DNA of 32,000 nt from Candidatus Saccharimonadota bacterium (GCA_000503915.1 CP006915.1:360001-392000), one strand, 5' to 3'. Shown: positions 1 through 17,876, numbered from the stretch's first letter. Notes: generated from the letters alone by a model not told the origin. Made by a program: numbers and translations.

Positions 1-2
1 TC

Positions 3-1136
3 AGCCCCGAATATGTAGAAAGATTACAAAATGAAGCCGCTGAACATAAAGTTGCCTTACGAAGGTTTGATCAACGAAGTAGACGAATGGCGAAAAGGGC
101 ATTGGTTCAGACAGAACCTAGGATAGCTAATGGTTCGGAAGCTTTAGTGAAGACTGAACCTGAGCTTATACCAGATGAAGACCAACCGGCGTTACATTCG
201 AGTCGTGCGGACAGAGAGATTGAGGGTAGAGACTCGGTCGGATTATATTTGGATGATATTGCGAAGAATCCACTTTTAAGCGCTGAGCAAGAGGTAGAGC
301 TTTCCAAAACTATTGAGGCTGGCTTAATGGCTGAAAATTTACTAAAAAATGATCAAATTGGCAAGAAGAGTGAAGCACCAATGCGAGCCTCCCGAGAGGA
401 GCTAGAATGGCTCGCCGAGGAAGGTCGCAAGGCAGTAGACCAATTCATTACGGCAAACTTACGGCTGGTGGTCTCGATTGCTCGTAAATATGGCCGAGCA
501 CAAATGCCCATGCTGGATCTGGTTCAGGAAGGCAACACCGGCTTGATCCATGCAGTAGAGAAGTTTGACTACACCAAAGGTTATAAGTTTTCGACTTACG
601 CCACATGGTGGGTGCGCCAAGCAATTACGCGTGGCATAGCACAGCAGTCTAGGTTGGTGCGTCTGCCCGTCCACGTGGCGGAAGAACTCAATCAAATTGG
701 CGGGACTAAACGGATACTTGAGCGTCAACTCGGTCGTGAAGTAGAACCGAGAGAAATTGCTAAAGAACTGGGGATGGATGTAGACCGGGTTCTCGATCTG
801 ATAGCATGGGGTCGAGAGCATGTATCGCTTGACACGCCAGTGGGCGATGACGGTGATACATCACTCGGTGACTTATTGGCTTGTGAGACCAGCCCTGGGC
901 CCGATGAGGCGGTGTTTGATGAAGATACGCGAAGACGGCTCAATGACTTGATCGATAGGCTGGATGAGCGGTCAGCTGATATTATTCGCCTACGATTTGG
1001 TCTGGCCGATGGGCGCTCGCATAAACTTACTGATATTGGCATGAAACATGGCATCTCGGCCGAGCGGGTTCGTCAGCTGGAGCGGCAGGCGCTCGCAACA
1101 CTGCGTCAGATCGGTGACCCTGAGCTGGCTCTGTAA
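3..1136 (+). CDS. rpoD: RNA polymerase sigma factor, sigma-70 family (group-1-like); 5' end possibly outside the window
   Basis: Region 1.2/2 motifs DSVGLYLDDIAKNPLLSAEQEVELSKTIEAG, ANLRLVVSIARKY and DLVQEGNTGLIHAVEKFDYTKGYKFSTYATWWVRQAITR. Region 4 HTH ISAERVRQLERQAL. The first in-window ATG is at 87, but the frame is open back to nt 3 and no SD or -10 box precedes 87, so the true start may lie upstream of the window. Confidence 0.9.
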   Translation, partial: SPEYVERLQNEAAEHKVALRRFDQRSRRMAKRALVQTEPRIANGSEALVKTEPELIPDEDQPALHSSRADREIEGRDSVGLYLDDIAKNPLLSAEQEVELSKTIEAGLMAENLLKNDQIGKKSEAPMRASREELEWLAEEGRKAVDQFITANLRLVVSIARKYGRAQMPMLDLVQEGNTGLIHAVEKFDYTKGYKFSTYATWWVRQAITRGIAQQSRLVRLPVHVAEELNQIGGTKRILERQLGREVEPREIAKELGMDVDRVLDLIAWGREHVSLDTPVGDDGDTSLGDLLACETSPGPDEAVFDEDTRRRLNDLIDRLDERSADIIRLRFGLADGRSHKLTDIGMKHGISAERVRQLERQALATLRQIGDPELAL

Positions 1137-1150
1137 GGTATACTAGTACT

Positions 1151-3682
1151 ATGACCAAGCGTTTGGCGGTAATCGATGGCAAGAGTGTCTTCTATAGAGG
1201 CTACTATGCCATGCCGGGACTTTCGACGAAAGATGGTATACCGACGGGAGGCGTGTTTGGTTTTGTTTCTCTCGCGATCGAACTGATCAAGAAACTAAAC
1301 CCCGACTATGTGGCGGTGGCGTGGGACAAGCCAAAAACGAATATCCGTAAGCGCCGCGAGATTTATCCGGAGTATAAAGCTGGCCGCAAACCGGCGCCGC
1401 CGGACTTTTATGAGCAGATTCCGATCTTGCACGACCTGCTCGAAGCCTTCGGCTGGCCGCTGTATGAACTCGACGATTACGAAGCCGACGATATTATGGG
1501 CGCCTTTGCCAAACAGGCTGAGGCGAAGGGTATTGAGACTTGTTTACTCACCAGTGACCTCGACGCACTGCAGATTGTCAGCCCGCTGACACATGTCTAT
1601 GCACTCAAGAACGGCCTCTCGAATATCGAGCTGTTCAACGTCGAAGCATTTGAGAGTAAGTATGGCCTACGGGTTGATCAGTTTCTCGACCTCAAGTCAT
1701 TAAAAGGCGACTCATCAGACAATATCCCCGGTGTGCCTGGCGTGGGTGAAAAGACCGGTATCCAGCTGCTTCAGCAGTACGAAACACTCGACGGGATTTA
1801 CGAGCACCTTGATGACATCAAGGAAAGCGTCCGCAAGAGACTGGAGGCCGGTAAAGAGTCGGCCTACATGAGTAAAGAGATCGGCCGTATCTGGACTGAT
1901 GCGCCAGTCAAACTCGACTGGGACGTGGCCGATGTCAATGACTGCGATCTGCAAAAAGTTGCGGATATCTTGCGGCAACTTGAGTTCCATTCTTTAATCA
2001 AGCGTCTGCCGAAGAATATGCAACAAGTGGCTGATACGTCACTCTATTTCCAAGCAGCTGATGAGGTGGAGCTAAAAGAGGTGGCTTGGCCAGAGCAGGT
2101 GACGATCGACGGACCATTCGTGCTGCATGTGACAGATGATGAACTGTGGGCGTCATTTACTGCTACGACTGTCTCACATACGAAACTCACGGAAGTCGAC
2201 AAAAGTTTTTGGCGGGCGGTTGAGTTTGGTACGGTGATTAGCTACGACGTAAAAGCGCTGTATCACACACTCGCTGAACACGATATCGAAGTGCAGTTTA
2301 GTGACATTCATGATATTCGCCAGGCAGCGTTCTTGCTCGATCCATTACGCCGTGATCGTAGCCTAGAAGCATTAATTGGGGGTGAAATCGCTTCACCACG
2401 GGATGAGATGTCGGCGATGCGCCAAGTCTATGCGTGGCAGGTGAAAGCTTTTGAGGAAAAACCGAAAGTGAGCGACATCGCGCACCGCTTCGATTTCCCG
2501 CTGATCTACCATTTGTTCCGCATGGAATATCTTGGCATCAAGCTCGATACCGGCTTACTCAAAACAATGAGTAAGCAGCTTGATGAGCAGTTCAAAAAGC
2601 TCGAACAAGAAATGTATTCGCTCGTCGGCTACGAGTTTAATATCGGCTCGCCAGCACAACTCTCAGAAGTATTATTTACCAAGCTACAACTACCAACCAC
2701 AGGGATAAAAAAGGGTAAAACCGGCTACTCAACTGGCCAAAAAGAACTCGATAAATTACGTGGCCAGCATCCAATTATCGAGCTAATTGAGCAGACGCGT
2801 GAGCTTGCTAAACTAAAGAACACGTACGTTGATACATTGCCCGAGCAGGTTGATAAAAACAGCCGCCTACATACCACGTTTAACCAAGACGTCGCCGCGA
2901 CTGGGCGACTCTCCAGTACTAGTCCGAACCTACAAAATATTCCGATTCGTTCCGAGATTGGCCGCAAGATTCGTGAAGCGTTTATTCCGGAAAAAGGCAA
3001 AGTCTTTGTCAGCGCCGACTACAGCCAGTTTGAGCTGCGTCTGGCGGCGGTGCTGGCCGGTGACAAAGAGCTAATTGACGACTTCAATGGCGATCTCGAT
3101 ATTCATACCAAGACAGCCAGCGACGTCTACGGCATCCCGATGAATGAGGTGACGAAAAACCAGCGCCGCGACGCCAAGGTGATTAATTTCGGCGTGCTCT
3201 ACGGCATGAGTCCGCACGGTCTCTCCGCCGCGACCGGTATGTCGTTTCCAGATGCGAAAAAGTTCATCGATAGCTACTTTGAACTGCGAAAGCCAATCCG
3301 TAGATTTATTGATGACACCTTGGAGAAGGCCAAAACCGAAGGATATGTTGAAACCTTCCATGGTCGTCGCCGCCCGACGCCGGATGTGAACTCGAGCAAC
3401 TTCATGGTGCGCGAAGCCGCCAAGCGCGCCGCCGCTAATATGCCGATCCAAGGCACCGAAGCCGATCTCATGAAGCTCGCGATGATCAAAGTCGACGACG
3501 AGATGGGTGATCTCGGCCAGCAAATCCTCCAGATCCATGACTCGATCCTCGTCGAATGTCCCGATAAAAATGCTGGTAAAGTATCCAAGATTTTGCAAGA
3601 AACTATGGAATCCATCGCACCAGAGCTTGGTATTAAATTGAAAGTTGATGTGCATGTCGGTAAGAACTGGGGAGAAGTGTGA
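1151..3682 (+). CDS. polA: DNA polymerase I
   Basis: 843 aa. N-terminal 5'-nuclease domain (GVFGF, EYKAGR, DNIPGVPGVGEKTG). A-family polymerase motif A DYSQFELRLAA, motif B RRDAKVINFGVLYGMS, motif C QIHDSILVE. Confidence 0.95.
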   Translation: MTKRLAVIDGKSVFYRGYYAMPGLSTKDGIPTGGVFGFVSLAIELIKKLNPDYVAVAWDKPKTNIRKRREIYPEYKAGRKPAPPDFYEQIPILHDLLEAFGWPLYELDDYEADDIMGAFAKQAEAKGIETCLLTSDLDALQIVSPLTHVYALKNGLSNIELFNVEAFESKYGLRVDQFLDLKSLKGDSSDNIPGVPGVGEKTGIQLLQQYETLDGIYEHLDDIKESVRKRLEAGKESAYMSKEIGRIWTDAPVKLDWDVADVNDCDLQKVADILRQLEFHSLIKRLPKNMQQVADTSLYFQAADEVELKEVAWPEQVTIDGPFVLHVTDDELWASFTATTVSHTKLTEVDKSFWRAVEFGTVISYDVKALYHTLAEHDIEVQFSDIHDIRQAAFLLDPLRRDRSLEALIGGEIASPRDEMSAMRQVYAWQVKAFEEKPKVSDIAHRFDFPLIYHLFRMEYLGIKLDTGLLKTMSKQLDEQFKKLEQEMYSLVGYEFNIGSPAQLSEVLFTKLQLPTTGIKKGKTGYSTGQKELDKLRGQHPIIELIEQTRELAKLKNTYVDTLPEQVDKNSRLHTTFNQDVAATGRLSSTSPNLQNIPIRSEIGRKIREAFIPEKGKVFVSADYSQFELRLAAVLAGDKELIDDFNGDLDIHTKTASDVYGIPMNEVTKNQRRDAKVINFGVLYGMSPHGLSAATGMSFPDAKKFIDSYFELRKPIRRFIDDTLEKAKTEGYVETFHGRRRPTPDVNSSNFMVREAAKRAAANMPIQGTEADLMKLAMIKVDDEMGDLGQQILQIHDSILVECPDKNAGKVSKILQETMESIAPELGIKLKVDVHVGKNWGEV

Positions 3683-4233
3683 ACGAAGAAATCTTTGCCC
3701 GAGGAAAATTATTTGAACTCATCCACCTGAAGCAAGACGACGGGCGAGTATTTGAAGTTGCTAGGCGGGCACCGGGTGTGCGGCTGATCATTTGCGACGA
3801 AGAAAATGGAAAGATTTTACTCACGAAAGAATACCGCCAGGAGCTGGGCGAGTGGGATTATCGACTGCCTGGCGGGAAAGTATTTGATAGCCTCGAAGAA
3901 TACGAGACACATCGAAACGGCGGTGATGACATCATCGAAGCGGCCAAAAAGCAAGCAATCAACGAGGCGCAGCAAGAAGCCGGTATTGAAATCGCAAATC
4001 TTGAACTGTATAAAAAATCAGTCCTCGGCGCAACCGTCGAGTGGAATCTCTATGTTTTTGCAACGACCAACTGGCAAGCAAGTGTGCACGGACAAGAACT
4101 GGAGGTTGGCGAGAAGATCGAAGCCGACAATTGGTTTAGCTTTGACGAAGCAAAGAAAATGATTCTCGACGGTGCGATCCAAGAAGAGCGTATTGCGCTC
4201 ATATTACTGCAATGGCTGGAGGCTAGAAAGTGA
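3679..4233 (+). CDS. Nudix-fold hydrolase-like protein with a divergent Nudix box
   Basis: LPGGKVFDSLEE...IIEAAKKQAINEAQQEAGIE resembles the Nudix box GX5EX7REUXEEXGU, but it carries an insertion and reads NE..QE where RE..EE is expected. GTG start overlaps the polA stop (GTGA), with GGAG 5 nt upstream. Confidence 0.65.
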   Translation: MNEEIFARGKLFELIHLKQDDGRVFEVARRAPGVRLIICDEENGKILLTKEYRQELGEWDYRLPGGKVFDSLEEYETHRNGGDDIIEAAKKQAINEAQQEAGIEIANLELYKKSVLGATVEWNLYVFATTNWQASVHGQELEVGEKIEADNWFSFDEAKKMILDGAIQEERIALILLQWLEARK

Positions 4234-4730
4234 AACTTTATATCGCCGGCAAGGTAGGCAAGAACTCGCAGTTTGGTACGCACCACTGGCGGGATAATTT
4301 TGTAGAGACACTAGCGAATGCATCGGGCTTATCGCTGACGCATTTAGATCCTCTAGCCTACGAAGGAGACCGGGAGTATGATCCGCAGTTCGTGTTTGAC
4401 AAAGACTGTTGGCTGATCAACCAAGTCGACTGTGTGATTGTCTATCTCAGTGATGATATCAGCGTCGGCGGTTCACAAGAAATGCTCATTGCAAAATACC
4501 TACGGAAACCGCTCATTGGACTTGCGCCAAAAGAAGGGAAGTTCAATAAATCAGAGAAAGAACACTTAGCTAAGGTCATAAAGGACTACATCGATCCGTT
4601 CGTGTACGCAACCTGTGATGTGGTGTGTGCAGACATGGAGGAAATGGCGAATGCTTTACGGAATCTGCCATCACCGAAAACTATTTCGATCATCGATGAT
4701 GGTATTGAGAGGATGGAAAAGCAGCAGTGA
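4230..4730 (+). CDS. nucleoside 2-deoxyribosyltransferase-like fold protein (tentative)
   Basis: KLYIAGKV at the N-terminus, then DCVIVYLSDDISVGGSQEMLIAKYLRKPLIGL. This matches the N-terminal glycine-rich strand plus the ...G(T/S)xxE(I/L)xxAxxxxKP(V/L)I... pattern of the NDT/Rcl family. GTGA overlap with the upstream gene; GGAGG 7 nt upstream. Confidence 0.5.
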   Translation: MKLYIAGKVGKNSQFGTHHWRDNFVETLANASGLSLTHLDPLAYEGDREYDPQFVFDKDCWLINQVDCVIVYLSDDISVGGSQEMLIAKYLRKPLIGLAPKEGKFNKSEKEHLAKVIKDYIDPFVYATCDVVCADMEEMANALRNLPSPKTISIIDDGIERMEKQQ

Positions 4731-5257
4731 AAGTAGTAATAAACATCTTTGGTCCATCAACGGCCGGAAAATCGACCGTTAGCGAGTTATTGCAGGAGCG
4801 GATTGAAAGACTATATACCGTAGATTTTGATGTCATAAAGCGTCAACTTGCCGGCTACTACTGGAAGCGCGATGCGGAAATAGCAAGAGATTTAACCTAT
4901 GAAACGCTTCGGTCTGTGTCGATGACCGAGCTTCCCATTCTGGCGCTTTTGCCAACGCCGAAAGATAAAACTGAGTATAATCGTATTGTTGACATTGCAC
5001 GACAAACAAAGCGCAAATTGCTTAATATTGAAATCACTGCCCCAGATGAGGTGCTGATCCAGCGCTACGAGGAGCGACTGAAAGCTATCAAAGCATCCGG
5101 CTCGACGTGGAAGTTTAAAACACTCGACGAGTTCAAAGAAAAATTGGCTCAGCGATACTATATACCAACTGACGTTCAGACATTTGATTCGTCGGTATCT
5201 TCACCTCAAGGAATCGTCGACAGAATTATGAAGATTATTGAAGAGGGTGCTAAATGA
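4727..5257 (+). CDS. P-loop NTPase, small kinase-like (AAA_33 / nucleotide-kinase-like)
   Basis: Canonical Walker A GPSTAGKST at residues 9-17. The 176-aa size and helical remainder are typical of small-molecule/nucleotide kinases. GTGA overlap with the upstream gene. Confidence 0.6.
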   Translation: MKVVINIFGPSTAGKSTVSELLQERIERLYTVDFDVIKRQLAGYYWKRDAEIARDLTYETLRSVSMTELPILALLPTPKDKTEYNRIVDIARQTKRKLLNIEITAPDEVLIQRYEERLKAIKASGSTWKFKTLDEFKEKLAQRYYIPTDVQTFDSSVSSPQGIVDRIMKIIEEGAK

Positions 5258-5661
5258 CAAAAGTTCTTTTTGTCTGCGAAGGCAACATGATGCGCTCGCA
5301 GATGGCAGAAGCGTTTTATAACGAGCTGACAAAATCGAGCGATGCCGTGAGCGCTGGTGCGACGGCGGAGACGAAAGAACACATCTCAAAGCGAGCCATC
5401 GAAGCAATGAATGAGATCGACTACGACGTGACGCATTTGAAGCCGAAGCAGCTGACTGAAAAGCTGGTGGACGATGCAGATACGGTAATATATTTTCCAA
5501 GCGACTACATGCCGGAATATGTCACCAAAAGCCCGAAGGCGACACACTGGGACGTCATCGATCCGCATTATCACCATGAAGAGGGTATGGAACTGGTGCG
5601 ACGGGTGCGTGATGATATTCAGAAGCGGGTTGAAAAACTCATAGGAGAAAGCAAGGTATGA
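5254..5661 (+). CDS. low-molecular-weight phosphotyrosine phosphatase / ArsC-family protein
   Basis: N-terminal CX5R(S/T) P-loop VLFVCEGNMMRSQMAEAF, followed by SAG and WDVIDP motifs. The C82/C89-type resolving cysteines of thioredoxin-coupled ArsC are absent, so a phosphatase role is more likely than arsenate reductase. ATGA overlap with the upstream gene. Confidence 0.8.
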   Translation: MTKVLFVCEGNMMRSQMAEAFYNELTKSSDAVSAGATAETKEHISKRAIEAMNEIDYDVTHLKPKQLTEKLVDDADTVIYFPSDYMPEYVTKSPKATHWDVIDPHYHHEEGMELVRRVRDDIQKRVEKLIGESKV

Positions 5662-6470
5662 TTCGTCACCGTTGGCGGCGATTTTTGCCGTATGCTGGTC
5701 CGAGAAAAGTCAGGGCGCCACGATCGGTGGAGGCGCTGAATGAGCAGATTGAACAACTAAAACGTTCGCTGCCCGAGATGAACCGTGCGAATAAAAAACT
5801 GGCACTACAAAAACTACTCGTTCTGCAGACACCACGTGCGGCCTTGGCGCAAAACCAGATGGATCGGCACAAACATGGGTATCATAACCGAGAGAAGCGG
5901 CTGTATGAGCTGATTGATTTCAACGATACGTTTGTGGCGGTGGTGCTGGCGCTTGACCGTAGTGAACTGGCAAGATTTACGCCGGATATCAAGCAGCGCA
6001 TGAGTGATTTTTGTCGTCAACAAGACACGCTGATGTTTAGCGACGAGCAGTTCGAAGCGATCGTGCATGGCTTGTCCGTGGAGATTTCTGTCTACCGAGC
6101 GGCGCATGACGACGGCCTGGATGTGGAAATGACCAGCCGTACCCAGGACGCTTTTGGTATCGATATGGTGGTTGGCGATCCGTCGGTTAGGCGACAAATT
6201 AATATTGACTGTAAAACGCCCTCAGCTTTTCGTTATAGGCTGGAGGAACTTCGTAAAAAAGGCCGGATCACCGATAGCGAGGTGCTACAGGCCGACGAGC
6301 AGGATTTTATCACGACTATGAACCGCCATGACGATGAAAAAGTTCCGGTCACAACCCTATGCATCCGCCCGGAACGAGTGGGCGATATTGCTGATTTTTC
6401 GCTTGGTGACACGAAGCCACTTGGTAGCTTATTACGCTCTGTTATTGCAGTCGACGGCTACCCATATTAG
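5658..6470 (+). CDS. hypothetical protein with a candidate PD-(D/E)xK nuclease core
   Basis: 270 aa. ATGA overlap with the upstream gene. GLSVEISVY ... FGIDMVVGDPSVRRQINIDCKT fits the E...hD...(D/E)xK arrangement of restriction-endonuclease-fold proteins. This is pattern recognition only. Confidence 0.6.
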   Translation: MIRHRWRRFLPYAGPRKVRAPRSVEALNEQIEQLKRSLPEMNRANKKLALQKLLVLQTPRAALAQNQMDRHKHGYHNREKRLYELIDFNDTFVAVVLALDRSELARFTPDIKQRMSDFCRQQDTLMFSDEQFEAIVHGLSVEISVYRAAHDDGLDVEMTSRTQDAFGIDMVVGDPSVRRQINIDCKTPSAFRYRLEELRKKGRITDSEVLQADEQDFITTMNRHDDEKVPVTTLCIRPERVGDIADFSLGDTKPLGSLLRSVIAVDGYPY

Positions 6471-6475
6471 CGCTT

Positions 6476-7171
6476 GTGTTTTTTCGCTTGCCAGCGCATA
6501 TTATGTACATGAGCGCCCATGAGACCGAAGCAGCTGAACGATTACTGCGAGGGCTTGATGCGGACGCCGTCGATATAGCCAAAAATCAGGACTATTTCGA
6601 CAACTTGGAAGGCTTTGTCCGTGCGTATGTAAGCCCGGAGACGTTTACCGTAGATGACGTAGAGATTGCTTATACGGCTGCTAACATGATCAGCGGCCTG
6701 GAGCTTGGCGGTATGATGTTGAATGTTCGGCAGCGGCGTACGCAAGCAGGTGAGACTTCGTACGATCCGGATAAATTCTATGCGGTTGCCGTTGGCTGGC
6801 TCGATTCGGATAAGACACCGGAATTCCGCTTTGTCCCTTCCCGCGTCAAACGAAGTCCCGATGGCAAACTGATAAGGAATGAACTGCTACTGGACGGCAC
6901 GTGGAATGAGCTTGAAGATAAGCTAGTGGCAGATCCGTCACGCAGTACGCTCGAGCAGGCTGAAGCAATACTGGAACGTCAGCGTATCCACAATGTGCAG
7001 CTGGCACAAACGACGCGGATTGTCATGACGTCGGAGGGAAGGTGGCTGTATCTGCCAGGTCATGTGGTGCACCGTCTGAAGCCGCTCGACGAAGCGCTCG
7101 CGTGTACGCGCCTGGCGCGAGAACGTGGCTTTGGCCGGCAGGCTACTGAGCAAACAATCGTGACAGATTAG
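6476..7171 (+). CDS. hypothetical protein
   Basis: 231-aa ORF directly after the previous gene, with no recognisable motif. The start is ambiguous: GTG 6476, ATG 6503 or ATG 6509. Confidence 0.55.
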   Translation: MFFRLPAHIMYMSAHETEAAERLLRGLDADAVDIAKNQDYFDNLEGFVRAYVSPETFTVDDVEIAYTAANMISGLELGGMMLNVRQRRTQAGETSYDPDKFYAVAVGWLDSDKTPEFRFVPSRVKRSPDGKLIRNELLLDGTWNELEDKLVADPSRSTLEQAEAILERQRIHNVQLAQTTRIVMTSEGRWLYLPGHVVHRLKPLDEALACTRLARERGFGRQATEQTIVTD

Positions 7172-7178
7172 AACTGTA

Positions 7179-7207
7179 TTGACATTTTTGATATAAAGTT
7201 GTAATAT
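7179..7207 (+). promoter_or_regulatory. sigma-70-type promoter: TTGACA, 17 nt, TAATAT; the -10 box ends 6 nt before ATG 7214
   Basis: Perfect -35 at 7179-7184, an exact 17-nt spacer, and -10 TAATAT at 7202-7207. There is no room for an SD, so a leaderless transcript is predicted. Confidence 0.6.
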
Positions 7208-7213
7208 CTAGTT

Positions 7214-7840
7214 ATGCAACGGAGTAGAAGCACGCGGTTATTTCCGCTATTTATCAGTCTTGTCGTCATCGCGCTGGTGATCGCGGTGGTTGTTTCATTG
7301 GTACGGACATTTTTTGCCGGTAATGACAATGCAACAAACACAAGTCAAGTCGCCGATCAGAAAAGCAGTCTACTAAAAACCGACGAAACTCACAGTGTCA
7401 AAATGACCGTTCGCGGACCGATCGTGGCGAATGAGCAATTTACTTCCTACGCTATCGAAGTTTCTTCCGATGAGCGCAGTATGAATATCTATAAAGGCTA
7501 CGAAGAAGATCAGGTCGACGGGAAGCGTTTTGCTAACAATGCGAAAGCCTACGAACAATTCGTGTATGCGCTTGATAAAGCCAACATGATGAAAGGCGAG
7601 GTACCGGCTGACGTTAATCAAAACGACCTGCGCGGTATCTGTGCAACCGGTTACGTGTACGAATTTAGTGTCCTCAAGAACAACGACACGGATAAGCGTC
7701 TCTGGACTTCGACCTGTTCGGGCTCAAAGGGAACGCTCGACGCCAGTCAAGTGCAGCTCAGCAACCTTTTCCTGGCACAAATTCCAGATTCGGGTAAACT
7801 CGTGCCATTCCAACAGTCGCCACTGCAGCTTCATTTTTAA
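7214..7840 (+). CDS. membrane-anchored/secreted hypothetical protein
   Basis: 208 aa. N-terminal basic stretch plus a hydrophobic helix (LFPLFISLVVIALVIAVVVSLV). Has its own consensus promoter. The soluble part has two Cys. Confidence 0.7.
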   Translation: MQRSRSTRLFPLFISLVVIALVIAVVVSLVRTFFAGNDNATNTSQVADQKSSLLKTDETHSVKMTVRGPIVANEQFTSYAIEVSSDERSMNIYKGYEEDQVDGKRFANNAKAYEQFVYALDKANMMKGEVPADVNQNDLRGICATGYVYEFSVLKNNDTDKRLWTSTCSGSKGTLDASQVQLSNLFLAQIPDSGKLVPFQQSPLQLHF

Positions 7841-7869
7841 CTAAAGAGTAAACACGGTACAATAAGCGT

Positions 7870-8445
7870 ATGATTCATGCGCTTATTTTTGACTGTTTTG
7901 GCGTGCTGTATAGCGAGGGGCGGCGGGAGATTGATGCGTTGGCGCCGCCGCACCTCAAAAGCGAGATGAATGACCTATATCTTCAATCAGATTATGGATA
8001 TATTACGCGGGAGGAGTTCCTAGCTCAATTGGCGGCTATGACGGGTTTGGATGTTGAGCGGCTTAGTCTAATGATTGAGCAGCATTACGTGCGGAATGAG
8101 CCCCTGATAGACTTTGTTCGTACAATGAAAGGTCGTTACAAAGTCGGTATGTTAAGTAATGTTGGTGATGATTTTGTGGAATCGCTCTTCTCTGAAGCGG
8201 AACGAGAAGCGTTATTTGATGATATTGTGCTATCAAGTAATGTTGGCCTACTGAAGCCCAGCGCGGAAATATACGAGCTTGCGGCGCAGCGGCTCGGTGT
8301 ACTGCCCGAAGAATGTGTGTTTATCGATGACAGACCGGTCAACGTGGAAGCCGCTCGGTACGTCGGCATGAAGGGAGTTACTTACACGGCCTTTCCGCAA
8401 CTCAAAACGGATATGACGAAGCTTTTGGAGCAATTCGATGCCTGA
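7870..8445 (+). CDS. HAD-superfamily hydrolase (subfamily IA-like)
   Basis: Motif I LIFDCFGVL (Asp nucleophile present, but residue D+2 is Phe, as in DxYGTL dehalogenase-like members rather than DxDGTL phosphatases). Motif II MLSNVG, motif III LLKPS, motif IV VFIDD. Confidence 0.8.
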   Translation: MIHALIFDCFGVLYSEGRREIDALAPPHLKSEMNDLYLQSDYGYITREEFLAQLAAMTGLDVERLSLMIEQHYVRNEPLIDFVRTMKGRYKVGMLSNVGDDFVESLFSEAEREALFDDIVLSSNVGLLKPSAEIYELAAQRLGVLPEECVFIDDRPVNVEAARYVGMKGVTYTAFPQLKTDMTKLLEQFDA

Positions 8446-9307
8446 ACTGCCTGAAGTTGAAACAATACGACGTGGCTTGGAGCTACTCATCGTCGGTAAA
8501 AAGATCGTCAAGGTGACCTATGATTGGCCGAAAGGCTTTCCGAATAGCGAAGCCGACATAAGCGAATTTCTGGTTGGTGCGAGCATTAGCGCCGTACGAC
8601 GACGCGCAAAAGTTCTACTCATCGAATTATCAACCAATTACACGCTTGTCACACACCTCAAAATGACTGGACAATTGGTATTTCGCGGCAAGGAAACGTT
8701 TGGTGCTGGGCATCCGAACGCTAGTTTAGTTGGTGAACTACCTGATAAATCGACGCGCGTCATCATTTTATTCGATGACGACTCAACACTTTATTTCAAC
8801 GATCAGCGTAAGTTTGGCTGGATGAAGCTGTATCCGACACCGGAAGTAGCGAATATCGATTTTATGAAAAAAGTCGGTCCGGAGCCGCTCGAAGACGACT
8901 TCACGGCTAAAGAATTTGTTCAGCGGATTCGTCGACGAAATGGGACAACTATCAAGGCAGCTATACTAGATCAAACGGTTCTTGCCGGAGTGGGTAATAT
9001 TTATGCTGATGAAAGTCTGTGGGGCGCGAAGCTGCATCCAGCCACGCGAGTACGCGATGTGAGTGACGAGCAGGTCGCCGAATTGCTAAAAGAAATCAAA
9101 TATGTCATGAATCTCGCTATCGAGAAGGGTGGCTCGACGGACAAAAATTATGTCAATGCCGAAGGTAAGCGCGGTAGCTACATCGATTTCGCCCGAGTGT
9201 TTCGCCAGGAAGGTAAAGCCTGCCCGCGTCATCCCGACGTACTGATCGAAAAAATTCGCGTTGCTGGCAGGGGAACGCATATTTGTCCGGTTTGTCAGCT
9301 ACAATAG
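8438..9307 (+). CDS. mutM: formamidopyrimidine-DNA glycosylase
   Basis: Hallmark N-terminus MPELPEVETIRRGL, H2TH region, and a C-terminal zinc finger CPRH...(x16)...CPVC (C-H-C-C variant). Overlaps the HAD gene by 8 nt. Confidence 0.93.
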   Translation: MPELPEVETIRRGLELLIVGKKIVKVTYDWPKGFPNSEADISEFLVGASISAVRRRAKVLLIELSTNYTLVTHLKMTGQLVFRGKETFGAGHPNASLVGELPDKSTRVIILFDDDSTLYFNDQRKFGWMKLYPTPEVANIDFMKKVGPEPLEDDFTAKEFVQRIRRRNGTTIKAAILDQTVLAGVGNIYADESLWGAKLHPATRVRDVSDEQVAELLKEIKYVMNLAIEKGGSTDKNYVNAEGKRGSYIDFARVFRQEGKACPRHPDVLIEKIRVAGRGTHICPVCQLQ

Positions 9308-9311
9308 AGTT

Positions 9312-10223
9312 ATGATTTATTTCTTAATTGGTGAGAATTGGTATGCGCGCGACAAAGCGGTGAAAGCTATTGTCGAGCGAGCTGACGGACTGCCAGAATA
9401 TATCGACGCTGAAAAAGTCACTGCGGGTAGTTTGCGTGAGCTTTTGAGTGCACAAACACTTTTTAGTCAGACTCGTACAGTTGTGCTGCGACAGCCGTCG
9501 GAGAATAAGGATCTGTGGGACTCTCTCGAAGACATAGCGTCAGGGGTTGCCGACGACGTTACACTGATTATCATCGAAGACAAACCCGATAAGCGGACGA
9601 AGACCTACAAGGCGCTACAGAAACAGGCGACGACGAAGGATTTTCCGAACTGGACAGAACGTGATACAGGATTCGCAACCGAATGGCTACTCAAAGAGGC
9701 CAAAGCACGGGCAGTACCGCTGAAAACTCGTGACGCTCAGCTGATTATCCAGCGAGTAGGGGTCGACCAAGGAGGGCTGGCGGCAGCACTTGAAAAGATT
9801 AGTCTCATGCCGGCAATCACTCCCGAAGCAATCGAAGCGAGCATCGACACCACCCCGACCGAAAATGTCTTTGTACTGCTAGAGACCGCACTGAGTGGCA
9901 AACGGGAAACGCTGGCTACTATGATCGCGACCTTACGACAGACCGAAGATGCCTATCGTGTATTTGGCCTGTTGAGTAGCCAATTGCAGCAACTTGCACT
10001 GCTCGTCTATGCCAAGAAGCCAGCGGCTGAAGTAGCGCGCGATATTGGTGCGAAGAGTCCGTACATGCTGCAAAAGCTAGAGGGTACGGCGAAACGACTC
10101 GGTAAAGAGCACGTTGCTACACTACTGACAGTCTTTGCTAATGCCGATATGCGGCTGAAATCTACCGATAACGATCCATGGTCGGTAGTTGAGAGCGCAC
10201 TGTACTCGAGTCTAAAAGACTAA
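9312..10223 (+). CDS. holA: DNA polymerase III delta subunit
   Basis: MIYFLIGENWYARDKAV..., LFSQTRTVVLRQ, TLIIIEDKPDKRTKTYKAL and LAAALEKISL follow the HolA pattern. ATG 9312 is chosen over the ORF-track start 9261, which lies inside fpg. Confidence 0.8.
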   Translation: MIYFLIGENWYARDKAVKAIVERADGLPEYIDAEKVTAGSLRELLSAQTLFSQTRTVVLRQPSENKDLWDSLEDIASGVADDVTLIIIEDKPDKRTKTYKALQKQATTKDFPNWTERDTGFATEWLLKEAKARAVPLKTRDAQLIIQRVGVDQGGLAAALEKISLMPAITPEAIEASIDTTPTENVFVLLETALSGKRETLATMIATLRQTEDAYRVFGLLSSQLQQLALLVYAKKPAAEVARDIGAKSPYMLQKLEGTAKRLGKEHVATLLTVFANADMRLKSTDNDPWSVVESALYSSLKD

Positions 10224-10245
10224 ACGCCTACTGGGAGTAGGCGTT
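10223..10245. terminator. hairpin between convergent holA and rpsT
   Basis: AACGCCTAC (10223-10231), loop TGGGA, GTAGGCGTT (10237-10245): a perfect 9-bp stem. On the minus strand a short T-run (TCTTTT) follows it. There is no T-tract on the plus strand. Confidence 0.45.
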
Positions 10246-10264
10246 ATAAACTTGTCCTAGAAAC

Positions 10265-10645
10265 TTATTTCTTTGCGGCGGGTTTTTTAGCAGCAGTTTT
10301 TGCGCTAGGTCTCTTGGCCGTCGCCTTCTTGGCTACGGGCTTTTTAGCGGGAGCTTTAGTAGCAGCAGGTTTTGTAGCCGGCTTCTTAGTAGCCGCTAGC
10401 TTTACGCCGGCATCTTTTGCTTCTTTAGCGAGAGCAGCTTTACGGCGAGCCACCGTATTCTTGTGCAGCAAGTTTTTCTTCAGTGCTTTGTCGAGCTCGG
10501 AGTGAGCTTTGGCGAGTGTCTCGCTTGACGGCTTGGCCTCAAAAGCCTTGACGGCTGCCTTGATGGCGCGCTTTGTAGCGACGTTGCGTTCGCGGGCGAC
10601 ATTAGCTTGCTTTACGCGCTTAATAGCGGACTTAATAATGGGCAT
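10265..10645 (-). CDS. rpsT: 30S ribosomal protein S20 with a Lys/Ala-rich C-terminal extension
   Basis: MPIIKSAIKRVKQANVARERNVATKRAIKAAVK is the canonical S20 N-terminus. SD AAAGGAAAG lies upstream. About 45 extra C-terminal residues of AKKP/ATKP repeats. Confidence 0.92.
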   Translation of the reverse strand: MPIIKSAIKRVKQANVARERNVATKRAIKAAVKAFEAKPSSETLAKAHSELDKALKKNLLHKNTVARRKAALAKEAKDAGVKLAATKKPATKPAATKAPAKKPVAKKATAKRPSAKTAAKKPAAKK

Positions 10646-17267: not shown

Positions 17268-17876
17268 GTGGATAAAAAAGCTCTACTTGAGCAAATTGCG
17301 GCAGACATTCGAAGCGAGAATGTCTGTCCAGATTTGGCCAAGGGTGCACATAGCTTAGTAATGGGCGATGGCAATGCAGATGCCGATATCATCTTTATTG
17401 GTGAAGCGCCAGGAAAGAATGAGGACGAGCAGGGATTGCCATTTGTCGGCGCCGCAGGGAAGTTTCTCAACGAAATGCTGGCTGCCGCCGACATGGATCG
17501 TAGCGATGTCTTTATCACCAATATTGTGAAGTACCGCCCACCGAATAACCGTGACCCCCTGCCAGAGGAAAAACAGGCTTTTTGGCCGTACTTAGCGCGG
17601 CAGCTGGAGATCATTGATCCTAAAGCGATTGTCACGTTAGGTCGTCATAGCATGGAATTTTTCTTACCAGATGCCCGCATCAGTCAAATCCACGGACATG
17701 CTGTCAGGAAAAAGGTAAAATACCATGACGGAAAAGAGTATGAATGGCTAATCATTCCGCTTTATCACCCCGCAGCAGCACTCTATAATGGCAGCATGAG
17801 GCAGACATTAATCGACGACTTCTTACGAGTACCGCAAATGATAAAACAAATGGAGGACTTGTCAAATATCGACTAA
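17268..17876 (+). CDS. uracil-DNA glycosylase, family-4 type (cysteine-less variant)
   Basis: Signature IIFIGEAPGKNEDEQGLPFVGAAGKFLNEML, plus NIVKYRPPNNRDP and HPAAALY. GTG 17268 with GGAG 7 nt upstream is chosen because the ORF-track start lies inside pnp. Confidence 0.85.
   Translation: MDKKALLEQIAADIRSENVCPDLAKGAHSLVMGDGNADADIIFIGEAPGKNEDEQGLPFVGAAGKFLNEMLAAADMDRSDVFITNIVKYRPPNNRDPLPEEKQAFWPYLARQLEIIDPKAIVTLGRHSMEFFLPDARISQIHGHAVRKKVKYHDGKEYEWLIIPLYHPAAALYNGSMRQTLIDDFLRVPQMIKQMEDLSNID

Follow-up and report, generated by a model that had tools for sequence, protein, structure and literature searches.

The window analysed here is a stretch of 32,000 nt (GCA_000503915.1, CP006915.1:360001-392000; G000:C1:360001-392000 in our comparisons) from a Candidatus Saccharimonadota bacterium. 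The source genome (G000) is a single contig of 845,464 bp and is 99.7% complete. Near the start of the window lies polA, encoding DNA polymerase I, which is followed on the same strand by five further open reading frames (ORFs), each overlapping its predecessor by 4 nt. They encode a Nudix-like protein, a protein of the nucleoside deoxyribosyltransferase (NDT) superfamily, a P-loop protein, a protein resembling low-molecular-weight protein tyrosine phosphatases (LMW-PTP) and a protein of 270 aa named p270. The features of the locus are listed in Table 1. The original prediction, made from the sequence of the window, took the six genes for one obligatorily co-expressed set. We find that only polA and p270 are fixed and that they enclose a flexible slot for accessory genes.

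Table 1. Features of the polA locus, in coordinates of the window.
Feature	Position	Strand	Description
TATACT -10-like box	1139..1144	+	6 nt before the polA ATG; putative leaderless-type promoter, head of the unit
polA	1151..3682	+	843 aa; 5′-3′ exonuclease domain and family A polymerase domain
Nudix-fold gene	3679..4233	+	184 aa; split, altered Nudix box
NDT-superfamily gene	4230..4730	+	166 aa; candidate N-glycosidase/transferase on nucleotides or nucleosides
P-loop gene	4727..5257	+	176 aa; small-molecule kinase-like, AAA_33
LMW-PTP/ArsC-family gene	5254..5661	+	135 aa; phosphatase-like, single Cys
p270	5658..6470	+	270 aa; helical N-terminal domain and PD-(D/E)xK-like core; conserved downstream anchor
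Junctions	GTGA 3679-3682, GTGA 4230-4233, GTGA 4727-4730, ATGA 5254-5257, ATGA 5658-5661		
p231	6476..7171	+	no family match; start uncertain (GTG 6476, ATG 6503 or ATG 6509)
TTGACA-17-TAATAT	7179..7207	+	promoter-like site before p208 (ATG 7214); putative start of the next unit
Post-slot backbone	7214..9307	+	p208 (membrane protein), HAD phosphatase (7870-8445), fpg (8438-9307)

The ORF list and the sequence both contain the six ORFs and the five predicted (G/A)TGA overlaps, all at the coordinates claimed for them. All five overlapping starts are backed by N-terminal conservation in homologues, including the conserved N-termini MNEEI.. of the Nudix-like protein and MKLYIAGK of the NDT-like protein and the Walker A motif at residues 9–16 of the P-loop protein. 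A GGAG-type Shine-Dalgarno (SD) site had been proposed for every junction. This holds for four of the five, where a GGAG/GAGG-type site lies 6–10 nt upstream; upstream of the P-loop start there is nothing better than a weak GGAA or a GAGG at the larger distance of 13–14 nt. PolA was identified by TIGR00593 (833 bits, cut-off 600), PRK05755 (849 against 720) and matches to PF02739, PF01367 and PF00476. The proposed domain identities of the other proteins were mostly right, except that the NDT-like protein is recognised by its fold rather than by its sequence score and that p270 matches no family in the profile libraries. Named homologues come from metagenome-assembled genomes of Candidatus Saccharimonadales/Saccharibacteria.

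Junctions between same-strand genes were counted genome-wide with a crude greedy longest-ORF caller. Overlaps of exactly 4 nt (-4 junctions) made up 34 of the 554 same-strand pairs, and overlaps of any length 112. At a probability of 0.06 per junction, about 5e-4 runs of five are expected per genome. With this crude ORF call, the run of five in the chain is the sole run of at least three successive -4 junctions in the genome. We conclude that the overlap chain is real, exceptional for this genome and not a chance pattern. Integron-like cassette boundaries at the junctions were also considered and were ruled out, as the five junctions have only SD-like purine runs in common.

The gap between the end of rpoD and polA is 14 nt long and contains the TATACT box. 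This box was found at the identical distance before polA in 15 of 15 relatives, one from another genus included. Around it the flanking sequence and even the upstream gene vary. The conservation of the box argues that polA heads the unit, as had been proposed. The internal starts carry SD-like motifs, with no comparable -10 box before them. Consensus scans for promoters and terminators gave no excess over shuffled sequence. The TATACT box probably directs transcription to begin at the polA ATG, yielding a leaderless mRNA, and the downstream genes would then be translated by SD-led re-initiation at the overlapping stop and start codons. A single transcript with translationally coupled genes is what this arrangement suggests.

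In order to assess conservation, we compared the locus with 60 relatives, 19 of which belong to the same genus. The original prediction had itself made conservation of the gene order downstream of polA the check on its claim, and the order failed it: the six-gene set or order was found in 0 of the 60 relatives. The NDT-like gene is present in three of the 60 (and in one of the 19 same-genus genomes), and the P-loop gene in a single one, a same-genus genome that carries it on a different contig. Close homologues of the LMW-PTP-like gene were detected in about five, and the Nudix-like gene in 12, of the 19 same-genus genomes. p270 is found in all 19 and in three further genera. The six-gene combination is an assembly of one genome, not a fixed machine or a new system. 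Across the genus the backbone reads rpoD-polA-slot-p270-(p231)-p208-HAD-fpg.

The polA-p270 interval was fetched from 22 loci, 20 of them complete, and the resident families were assigned by Pfam. The slot is 0.15–5 kb long and shows at least 15 architectures in the 20 complete loci, with a content that is different in nearly every species. Its residents include S-adenosylmethionine (SAM)-dependent methyltransferases, PNPOx-like and HIT proteins, GNAT proteins, cytidine/dCMP deaminases, two further Nudix types, dUTPase, a weak MazG-like protein, a guanylate-kinase-like P-loop protein and HAD phosphatases. By similarity or size alone we also recognised AbrB/PIN-like toxin-antitoxin pairs, a 1054-aa protein resembling restriction-modification (RM) proteins and an 827-aa membrane protein. 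The slot is empty or nearly so in three genomes (G012, G014 and G008), and in another (G004) it holds an equally long overlap chain built of other genes. Roughly half of the genomes of the genus encode a PNPOx-like protein (PF01243, 114–124 aa) directly upstream of p270, mostly with an overlap, for example at L008 8156–8512 (oriented coordinates); the window genome has none.

The slot is tightly packed regardless of what it contains. Overlaps were found at 42 of 74 slot junctions and overlaps of exactly 4 nt at 21 of 74, compared with 20% and 6% genome-wide. A recurrent theme in the slot of relatives is nucleotide hygiene, represented by Nudix, dUTPase, deaminase, HIT, HAD and MazG-like genes, and the same theme is seen in distant Saccharimonadales. 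Nudix, dUTPase, MazG-like, HIT, deaminase, NDT, kinase, HAD or LMW-PTP families account for 42 of the 79 slot gene instances, which is a raw count over related genomes that are not independent samples. On balance we lean, with only slightly more confidence than doubt, toward reading the locus as a polA operon with a leaderless mRNA, in which nucleotide house-cleaning enzymes are enriched in a plug-in slot.

The main rival to the house-cleaning slot is pure hitch-hiking. The interval would then be a permissive hot spot for insertions and deletions, in which any small gene is expressed by constitutive read-through and the overlaps result from deletion pressure. The turnover of the slot from species to species and its emptiness in three genomes fit this explanation, as does cargo that has no link to nucleotides (SAM-methyltransferase, PNPOx-like, GNAT, VapBC, the RM-like 1054-aa gene and membrane proteins). 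It accounts less well for a slot in which families of nucleotide or phosphoester hydrolases supply over half of the gene instances, and in which packing is far tighter than the genome average. We regard hitch-hiking as possible, though somewhat unlikely.

The NDT-like protein scores 18 bits against PF05014, below the cut-off of 28.8; some of its homologues have a precomputed PF05014 match. Its AlphaFold2 model has a pLDDT of 92 and a pTM of 0.87. A Foldseek search of the PDB with this model returned MilB, BcmB, NDT and DNPH1/Rcl, with a best E of 6e-5 and TM-scores of 0.45–0.67. With the exception of 7m5h, which is uncharacterised, the first 48 matches all belong to the NDT superfamily; 28 of them reach E ≤ 1e-3. 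Thus, the proposed deoxyribosyltransferase fold was confirmed by the model and the Foldseek search despite the sub-cut-off sequence score.

A glutamate, E84, is invariant in 55 sequences of the family and lies within an invariant DDISVGGSQE motif. It is aligned with the catalytic Glu (GTAFE) of the Trypanosoma brucei NDT 2a0k, where the helix that follows β3 begins. With the true NDTs of Lactobacillus, T. brucei (2a0k) and Chroococcidiopsis (8pqr) the protein shares the fold, the Y-x-A-G motif and the Glu position. It differs from them in that the column of the NDT Asp, which precedes the catalytic Glu by six residues, holds an invariant Ser (Ser78), and in that AGK stands in place of AGP after the N-terminal Tyr; its profile matches PDB NDTs with an E of only 0.75–1.1. 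A Ser at this position together with a basic N-terminal loop is what we take to be the mark of the nucleotide-specific DNPH1/Rcl branch, as opposed to true transferases, and the Ser presumably corresponds to Ser87 of Rcl. Because Ser78 and AGK resemble that branch, we propose with moderate confidence that the protein is a (deoxy)nucleoside monophosphate ((d)NMP) N-glycosidase of the DNPH1/MilB type rather than a transferase.

DNPH1/Rcl and the CMP N-glycosidases MilB/BcmB have the same fold (4ohr, 4jen, 4kxm, 8rps), and the catalytic Glu is kept. The resemblance is distant, with 12–19% identity, TM-scores no higher than the range given above and a sequence score that stays below the PF05014 cut-off. 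In contrast to DNPH1/MilB, this candidate enzyme has an extra β-hairpin at residues 106–121 and an AGK..K.S N-terminal loop. The family also differs from them in having been seen only in Saccharimonadales so far and in being positionally tied to polA.

The NDT-like family gave 444 matches; within the order it is confined to 16 of 301 genomes, representing 15 of 218 genera. The gene lies downstream of polA and in the same direction in seven distant metagenomic contexts (53–59% identity), with dUTPase, Nudix, HAD and fpg genes around it, and downstream of polA in seven further genomes of the order. Counting the source genome, G018 and G025, 18 genomes from many families have sufficient sequence upstream of the gene, and in 17 of these it is linked to polA, the exception being G043. 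That so rare a gene stays by polA across the order, and that dUTPase, HAD and fpg genes cluster with it in distant genomes, speaks against pure hitch-hiking. The order polA-Nudix-NDT recurs at two loci (L033 and L035) whose Nudix genes are no detectable orthologues of the one in the window; an orthologous pair of the 184-aa Nudix gene (Nudix184) and the NDT-like gene, with a 4-nt overlap, recurs at L034. Pseudogene-like copies were also seen, one in two pieces in G283 (L049 7263–7743) and one with an in-frame TAG (G278:C18:2386-2874), which is consistent with ongoing loss of the gene. In the literature searched we found no report linking Saccharibacteria or Patescibacteria with a deoxyribosyltransferase in this sense.

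The P-loop protein scores 29.5 bits against PF13671 (AAA_33; cut-off 27), and AAA_33 is matched by 18 of 19 members of its small family (26 matches). Residues G9, G14, K15 and S16 of its Walker A motif are invariant, and the nearest folds are APS kinase and BH3686. Sequence searches of the PDB with this protein and with the Nudix-like protein yielded only designed proteins or Walker-A-only matches. An assignment as deoxynucleoside kinase (dNK) was rejected, since PF01712 is matched by only one of the 19 family members (E = 0.009). The gene has the lowest GC content of the chain, about 1.8 sd below the genome mean, and the other genes lie within 1.1 sd. A recent foreign origin of the chain was rejected on composition, as only this gene is low in GC. 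One homologue (L036 5001–5537) has a Replic_Relax gene and a gene for a large serine recombinase some 2.3 kb away (7789–10380), and it may travel on mobile DNA. A distant paralogue is present in the same genome (G000:C1:217410-217769; 30% identity, E 1.6e-6).

These two proteins invite comparison with the pair of NDT and deoxynucleoside kinase of lactobacilli. By analogy, the chain could be a dedicated deoxynucleoside salvage line, in which the NDT-like enzyme swaps bases, the P-loop protein phosphorylates, the phosphatase and the Nudix protein balance the pool, and dNTPs are delivered to PolA. An NDT fold with the catalytic Glu, immediately followed by a kinase-like gene with a 4-nt overlap, would suit such a line. 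So would a small genome (845 kb), given that bacteria of the candidate phyla radiation (CPR) generally lack de novo nucleotide synthesis. The kinase is nevertheless AAA_33/APS-kinase-like and not a dNK, no other genome has it beside the NDT-like gene, and the NDT-like protein combines the Ser-for-Asp and AGK-for-AGP replacements with its sub-cut-off PF05014 score. We consider a salvage line very unlikely.

The LMW-PTP-like protein scores 70 bits against PF01451 (cut-off 23.2), and its best sequence matches are 1lk0 and 1jf8 (pI258 ArsC; E about 3e-11). It has a C8-EGNMM-R14-S15 loop (CX5RS), and its D103-P104 falls on the DP motif of ArsC in the alignment; both elements are shared with pI258 ArsC and with LMW-PTPs such as YwlE. 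Cys8 is the only cysteine of the triad that is present, with Cys82 of pI258 ArsC replaced by Pro and Cys89 by a gap. Because both are missing, the protein, unlike pI258 ArsC, cannot run the canonical disulfide cascade. A thioredoxin-coupled ArsC was rejected on the same grounds, with the Cys10/Cys82/Cys89 triad incomplete and TIGR02691 scoring 71 bits against 174. Judged by these residues, the protein is more likely of the phosphatase type than a canonical arsenate reductase. An LMW-PTP gene adjoins p270, directly upstream of it, in six genomes from three genera (G002, G013, G017, G007, G031 and G036).

The Nudix-like protein scores 36.2 bits against PF00293, above the cut-off of 21.1. Its Nudix box (GX5EX7REUXEEXGU) is not intact; about 15 inserted residues interrupt it, and its sequence here is NEAQQEAG. 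Orthologues in the sister clade read EAAEEAGV, and the Arg of the box is not conserved. The family probably derives from an active hydrolase, since it passes the PF00293 cut-off and the sister clade keeps EAAEEAGV, and the protein may still bind metal. In one relative (G011) a SAM-methyltransferase is fused to Nudix184 (384 aa; L013 957–2111), and in at least six others (G001, G002, G013, G015, G017b and G018) the methyltransferase gene lies directly upstream. The fusion is a Rosetta-stone hint that the two may act jointly. In the window genome the Nudix184 gene has no SAM-methyltransferase.

The downstream anchor of the slot, p270, has a public gene call of 247 aa that starts 23 codons later (window 5658–5726). 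The W6 and P11 of its WRRFxP motif are at least 90% conserved. Because this motif lies upstream of the later start, ATG 5658 appears to be the better start, and the public call looks too short. The predicted structure (pLDDT 89) contains an α-β-β-β-α unit on which E142 (helix 129–151), D169 (before strand 170–174) and D184-x-K186 (end of strand 179–186) are invariant, which is the E…D…(D/E)xK signature expected on such a core. Signature and unit are common to p270 and the PD-(D/E)xK nucleases Mrr, MTES_1575 and VRR-NUC. The recurrent weak Pfam matches of the family are restriction-endonuclease-fold families only; below threshold, MTES_1575 is matched by 15 of 48 members (best E 0.005) and Mrr_cat_2 by nine of 48. 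Unlike those nucleases, p270 has no significant HMM or fold match. Foldseek searches against the PDB and BFVD gave nothing better than E 0.03, and a profile search against PDB sequences gave no match; short local BFVD matches were to PD(D/E)XK, VRR-NUC and resolvase proteins. The N-terminal domain is helical, comprises 150 residues, has a conserved TPRA..AQ.QMD.H..GY..R.KRL.ELI.FND motif and resembles nothing solved. We therefore describe p270 as a putative PD-(D/E)xK-like protein whose helical N-terminal domain is new and highly conserved.

Downstream of p270, p231 begins after 5 nt. Homologues of p231 follow p270 in three relatives by tblastn (G004, G008 and G014), and in five more genomes similar ORFs of about 230 aa at this place are probably homologues too. 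The homologues in relatives start with M(A/S)RFETP, so that either of the two later ATGs is the more likely start, and TATTAT/CATATT hexamers occur just upstream of these (window 6476–6511). The promoter-like site before p208 is the best such match in positions 1–10000, agreeing at 10 of 12 positions. The 5-nt spacing and this site suggest that p231 is probably the last gene and that the unit runs from polA to p231, comprising seven genes. The order p208-HAD-fpg is repeated both in the genus and in distant genomes. A TACAAT at 7858–7863, 6 nt before the HAD ATG, resembles another leaderless-type start. HAD and fpg overlap by 8 nt (8438–8445), and their adjacency is kept across the order. A gene of the uracil-DNA glycosylase (UDG) family lies 8 kb downstream of fpg (17364–17807; PF03167, E 5e-36).

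A nuclease-like p270 next to NDT- and TIR-like folds, a Nudix protein and a kinase could also belong to a module for defence or DNA modification, directed against phage or acting on a non-canonical base, as had been suggested more speculatively. Toxin-antitoxin pairs and an RM-like gene do occur in the slot of some relatives, p270 has a restriction-endonuclease-like core, and ThsB appears at rank 49 among the fold matches of the NDT-like protein. The search for known defence systems lent this suggestion no support: in PADLOC-DB 2.0 none of the seven proteins had a match below E = 0.008, which is noise, and PolA reached only 170 bits against DpoZ, far below the cut-off of 500. The fold matches of the NDT-like protein are the metabolic NDT, MilB and DNPH1 and not TIR/ThsB, the chain contains no base-modifying synthase, and its four slot genes never occur together elsewhere. 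p270, as a core gene of the genus (19/19), is also unlike typical defence genes. A defence or modification module is thus weakly refuted, and we consider it exceedingly improbable.

The original prediction of a unit for nucleotide salvage and pool sanitation was partly upheld. Its products plausibly act on nucleotides or DNA, in agreement with their folds, and the hygiene theme recurs in the slot of relatives; the gene set is not conserved, and the chain is not the only sanitation unit of the cell, because the genome encodes, outside the chain, a further seven Nudix proteins, three MazG proteins, one DCD protein and two UDGs. This wealth of sanitation enzymes outside the chain is a further point for hitch-hiking. 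No trimeric dUTPase (PF00692) was found in the G000 genome. At G000:C1:647622-650308, thyA is clustered with genes of the DCD and MazG families, which may represent a bifunctional dCTP deaminase/dUTPase route. The idea that the chain replaces a dUTPase was dropped, as a DCD-family gene is present beside thyA and MazG.

Salvage admits damaged and modified nucleosides to the dNTP pool, which is cleaned by dUTPase, MazG-type and Nudix enzymes (PMC12887539). The need of salvage-reliant organisms for such enzymes fits the house-cleaning slot. In the proposed mechanism, small genes are gained and lost between polA and p270 from one species to the next, and over half of the instances would be house-cleaning enzymes for nucleotides or phosphoesters. 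In the source genome the slot would hold a Nudix protein with an altered box, an NDT-superfamily enzyme, a wandering AAA_33 kinase and a single-Cys phosphatase of the LMW-PTP type. These enzymes would remove or recycle non-canonical nucleotides that the epibiont takes up by scavenging, at the time when PolA is made.

In addition to the unrelated cargo and the raw nature of the family count, four observations weigh against the house-cleaning slot. Homologues of the P-loop gene were found in three unrelated neighbourhoods, none of them linked to polA; the wandering of this gene, with one homologue near a serine recombinase and a relaxase, speaks for hitch-hiking. The altered Nudix box, with R changed to N, one E to Q and the 15-residue insert, may mean that the Nudix-like protein is no hydrolase. 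The linkage of polA and the NDT-like gene could be the passive retention of an ancestral position in a conserved backbone. Finally, in two relatives (G001 and G013) a separate TACAAT box precedes p270 with the spacing of a leaderless start. The p270 start is SD-coupled and overlapping in five genomes, the source genome among them (G000, G004, G007, G008 and G016), which indicates that the wiring of the operon is plastic. Obligatory co-expression with PolA, as originally predicted, is therefore not general.

Sanitation enzymes (MutT/Nudix, dUTPase, MazG, HAD nucleotidases) beside repair genes are a known arrangement, a concept for which a review exists (PMC12887539), and in the genomes compared here Nudix, dUTPase, MazG-like, HIT, deaminase and HAD genes lie between polA and fpg. 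Unlike such clusters, the locus has a variable plug-in slot that is chained to polA and whose composition differs in nearly every species. No published description of such a slot was found in the literature searched. We see the locus as a variant of known clustering of repair and sanitation genes and of flexible genomic islets. A bolder version of the house-cleaning slot can be formulated, in which the slot is under selection and is loaded in each species to suit the damaged or modified nucleotides scavenged from its host, the NDT-like protein acts as the bacterial equivalent of DNPH1 and breaks down non-canonical (d)NMPs ahead of PolA, and p270 is a new PolA-associated repair nuclease. We think this version unlikely.

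As obligate epibionts, Saccharibacteria are commonly considered to depend on nucleotide scavenging, and they must therefore prevent bases that are foreign, damaged or modified from entering their DNA. Beyond the six-gene chain, what deserves more interest is the order-wide slot anchored at polA together with two uncharacterised families, an NDT-fold enzyme that stays with polA throughout the order and the PD-(D/E)xK-like p270 of the genus core. The locus is also a clean natural example of a region in which gene content turns over and operon packing is retained. If the house-cleaning slot is real, a conserved promoter and a polymerase gene that pull along species-specific nucleotide cleaners would be a simple genomic device against bad bases.

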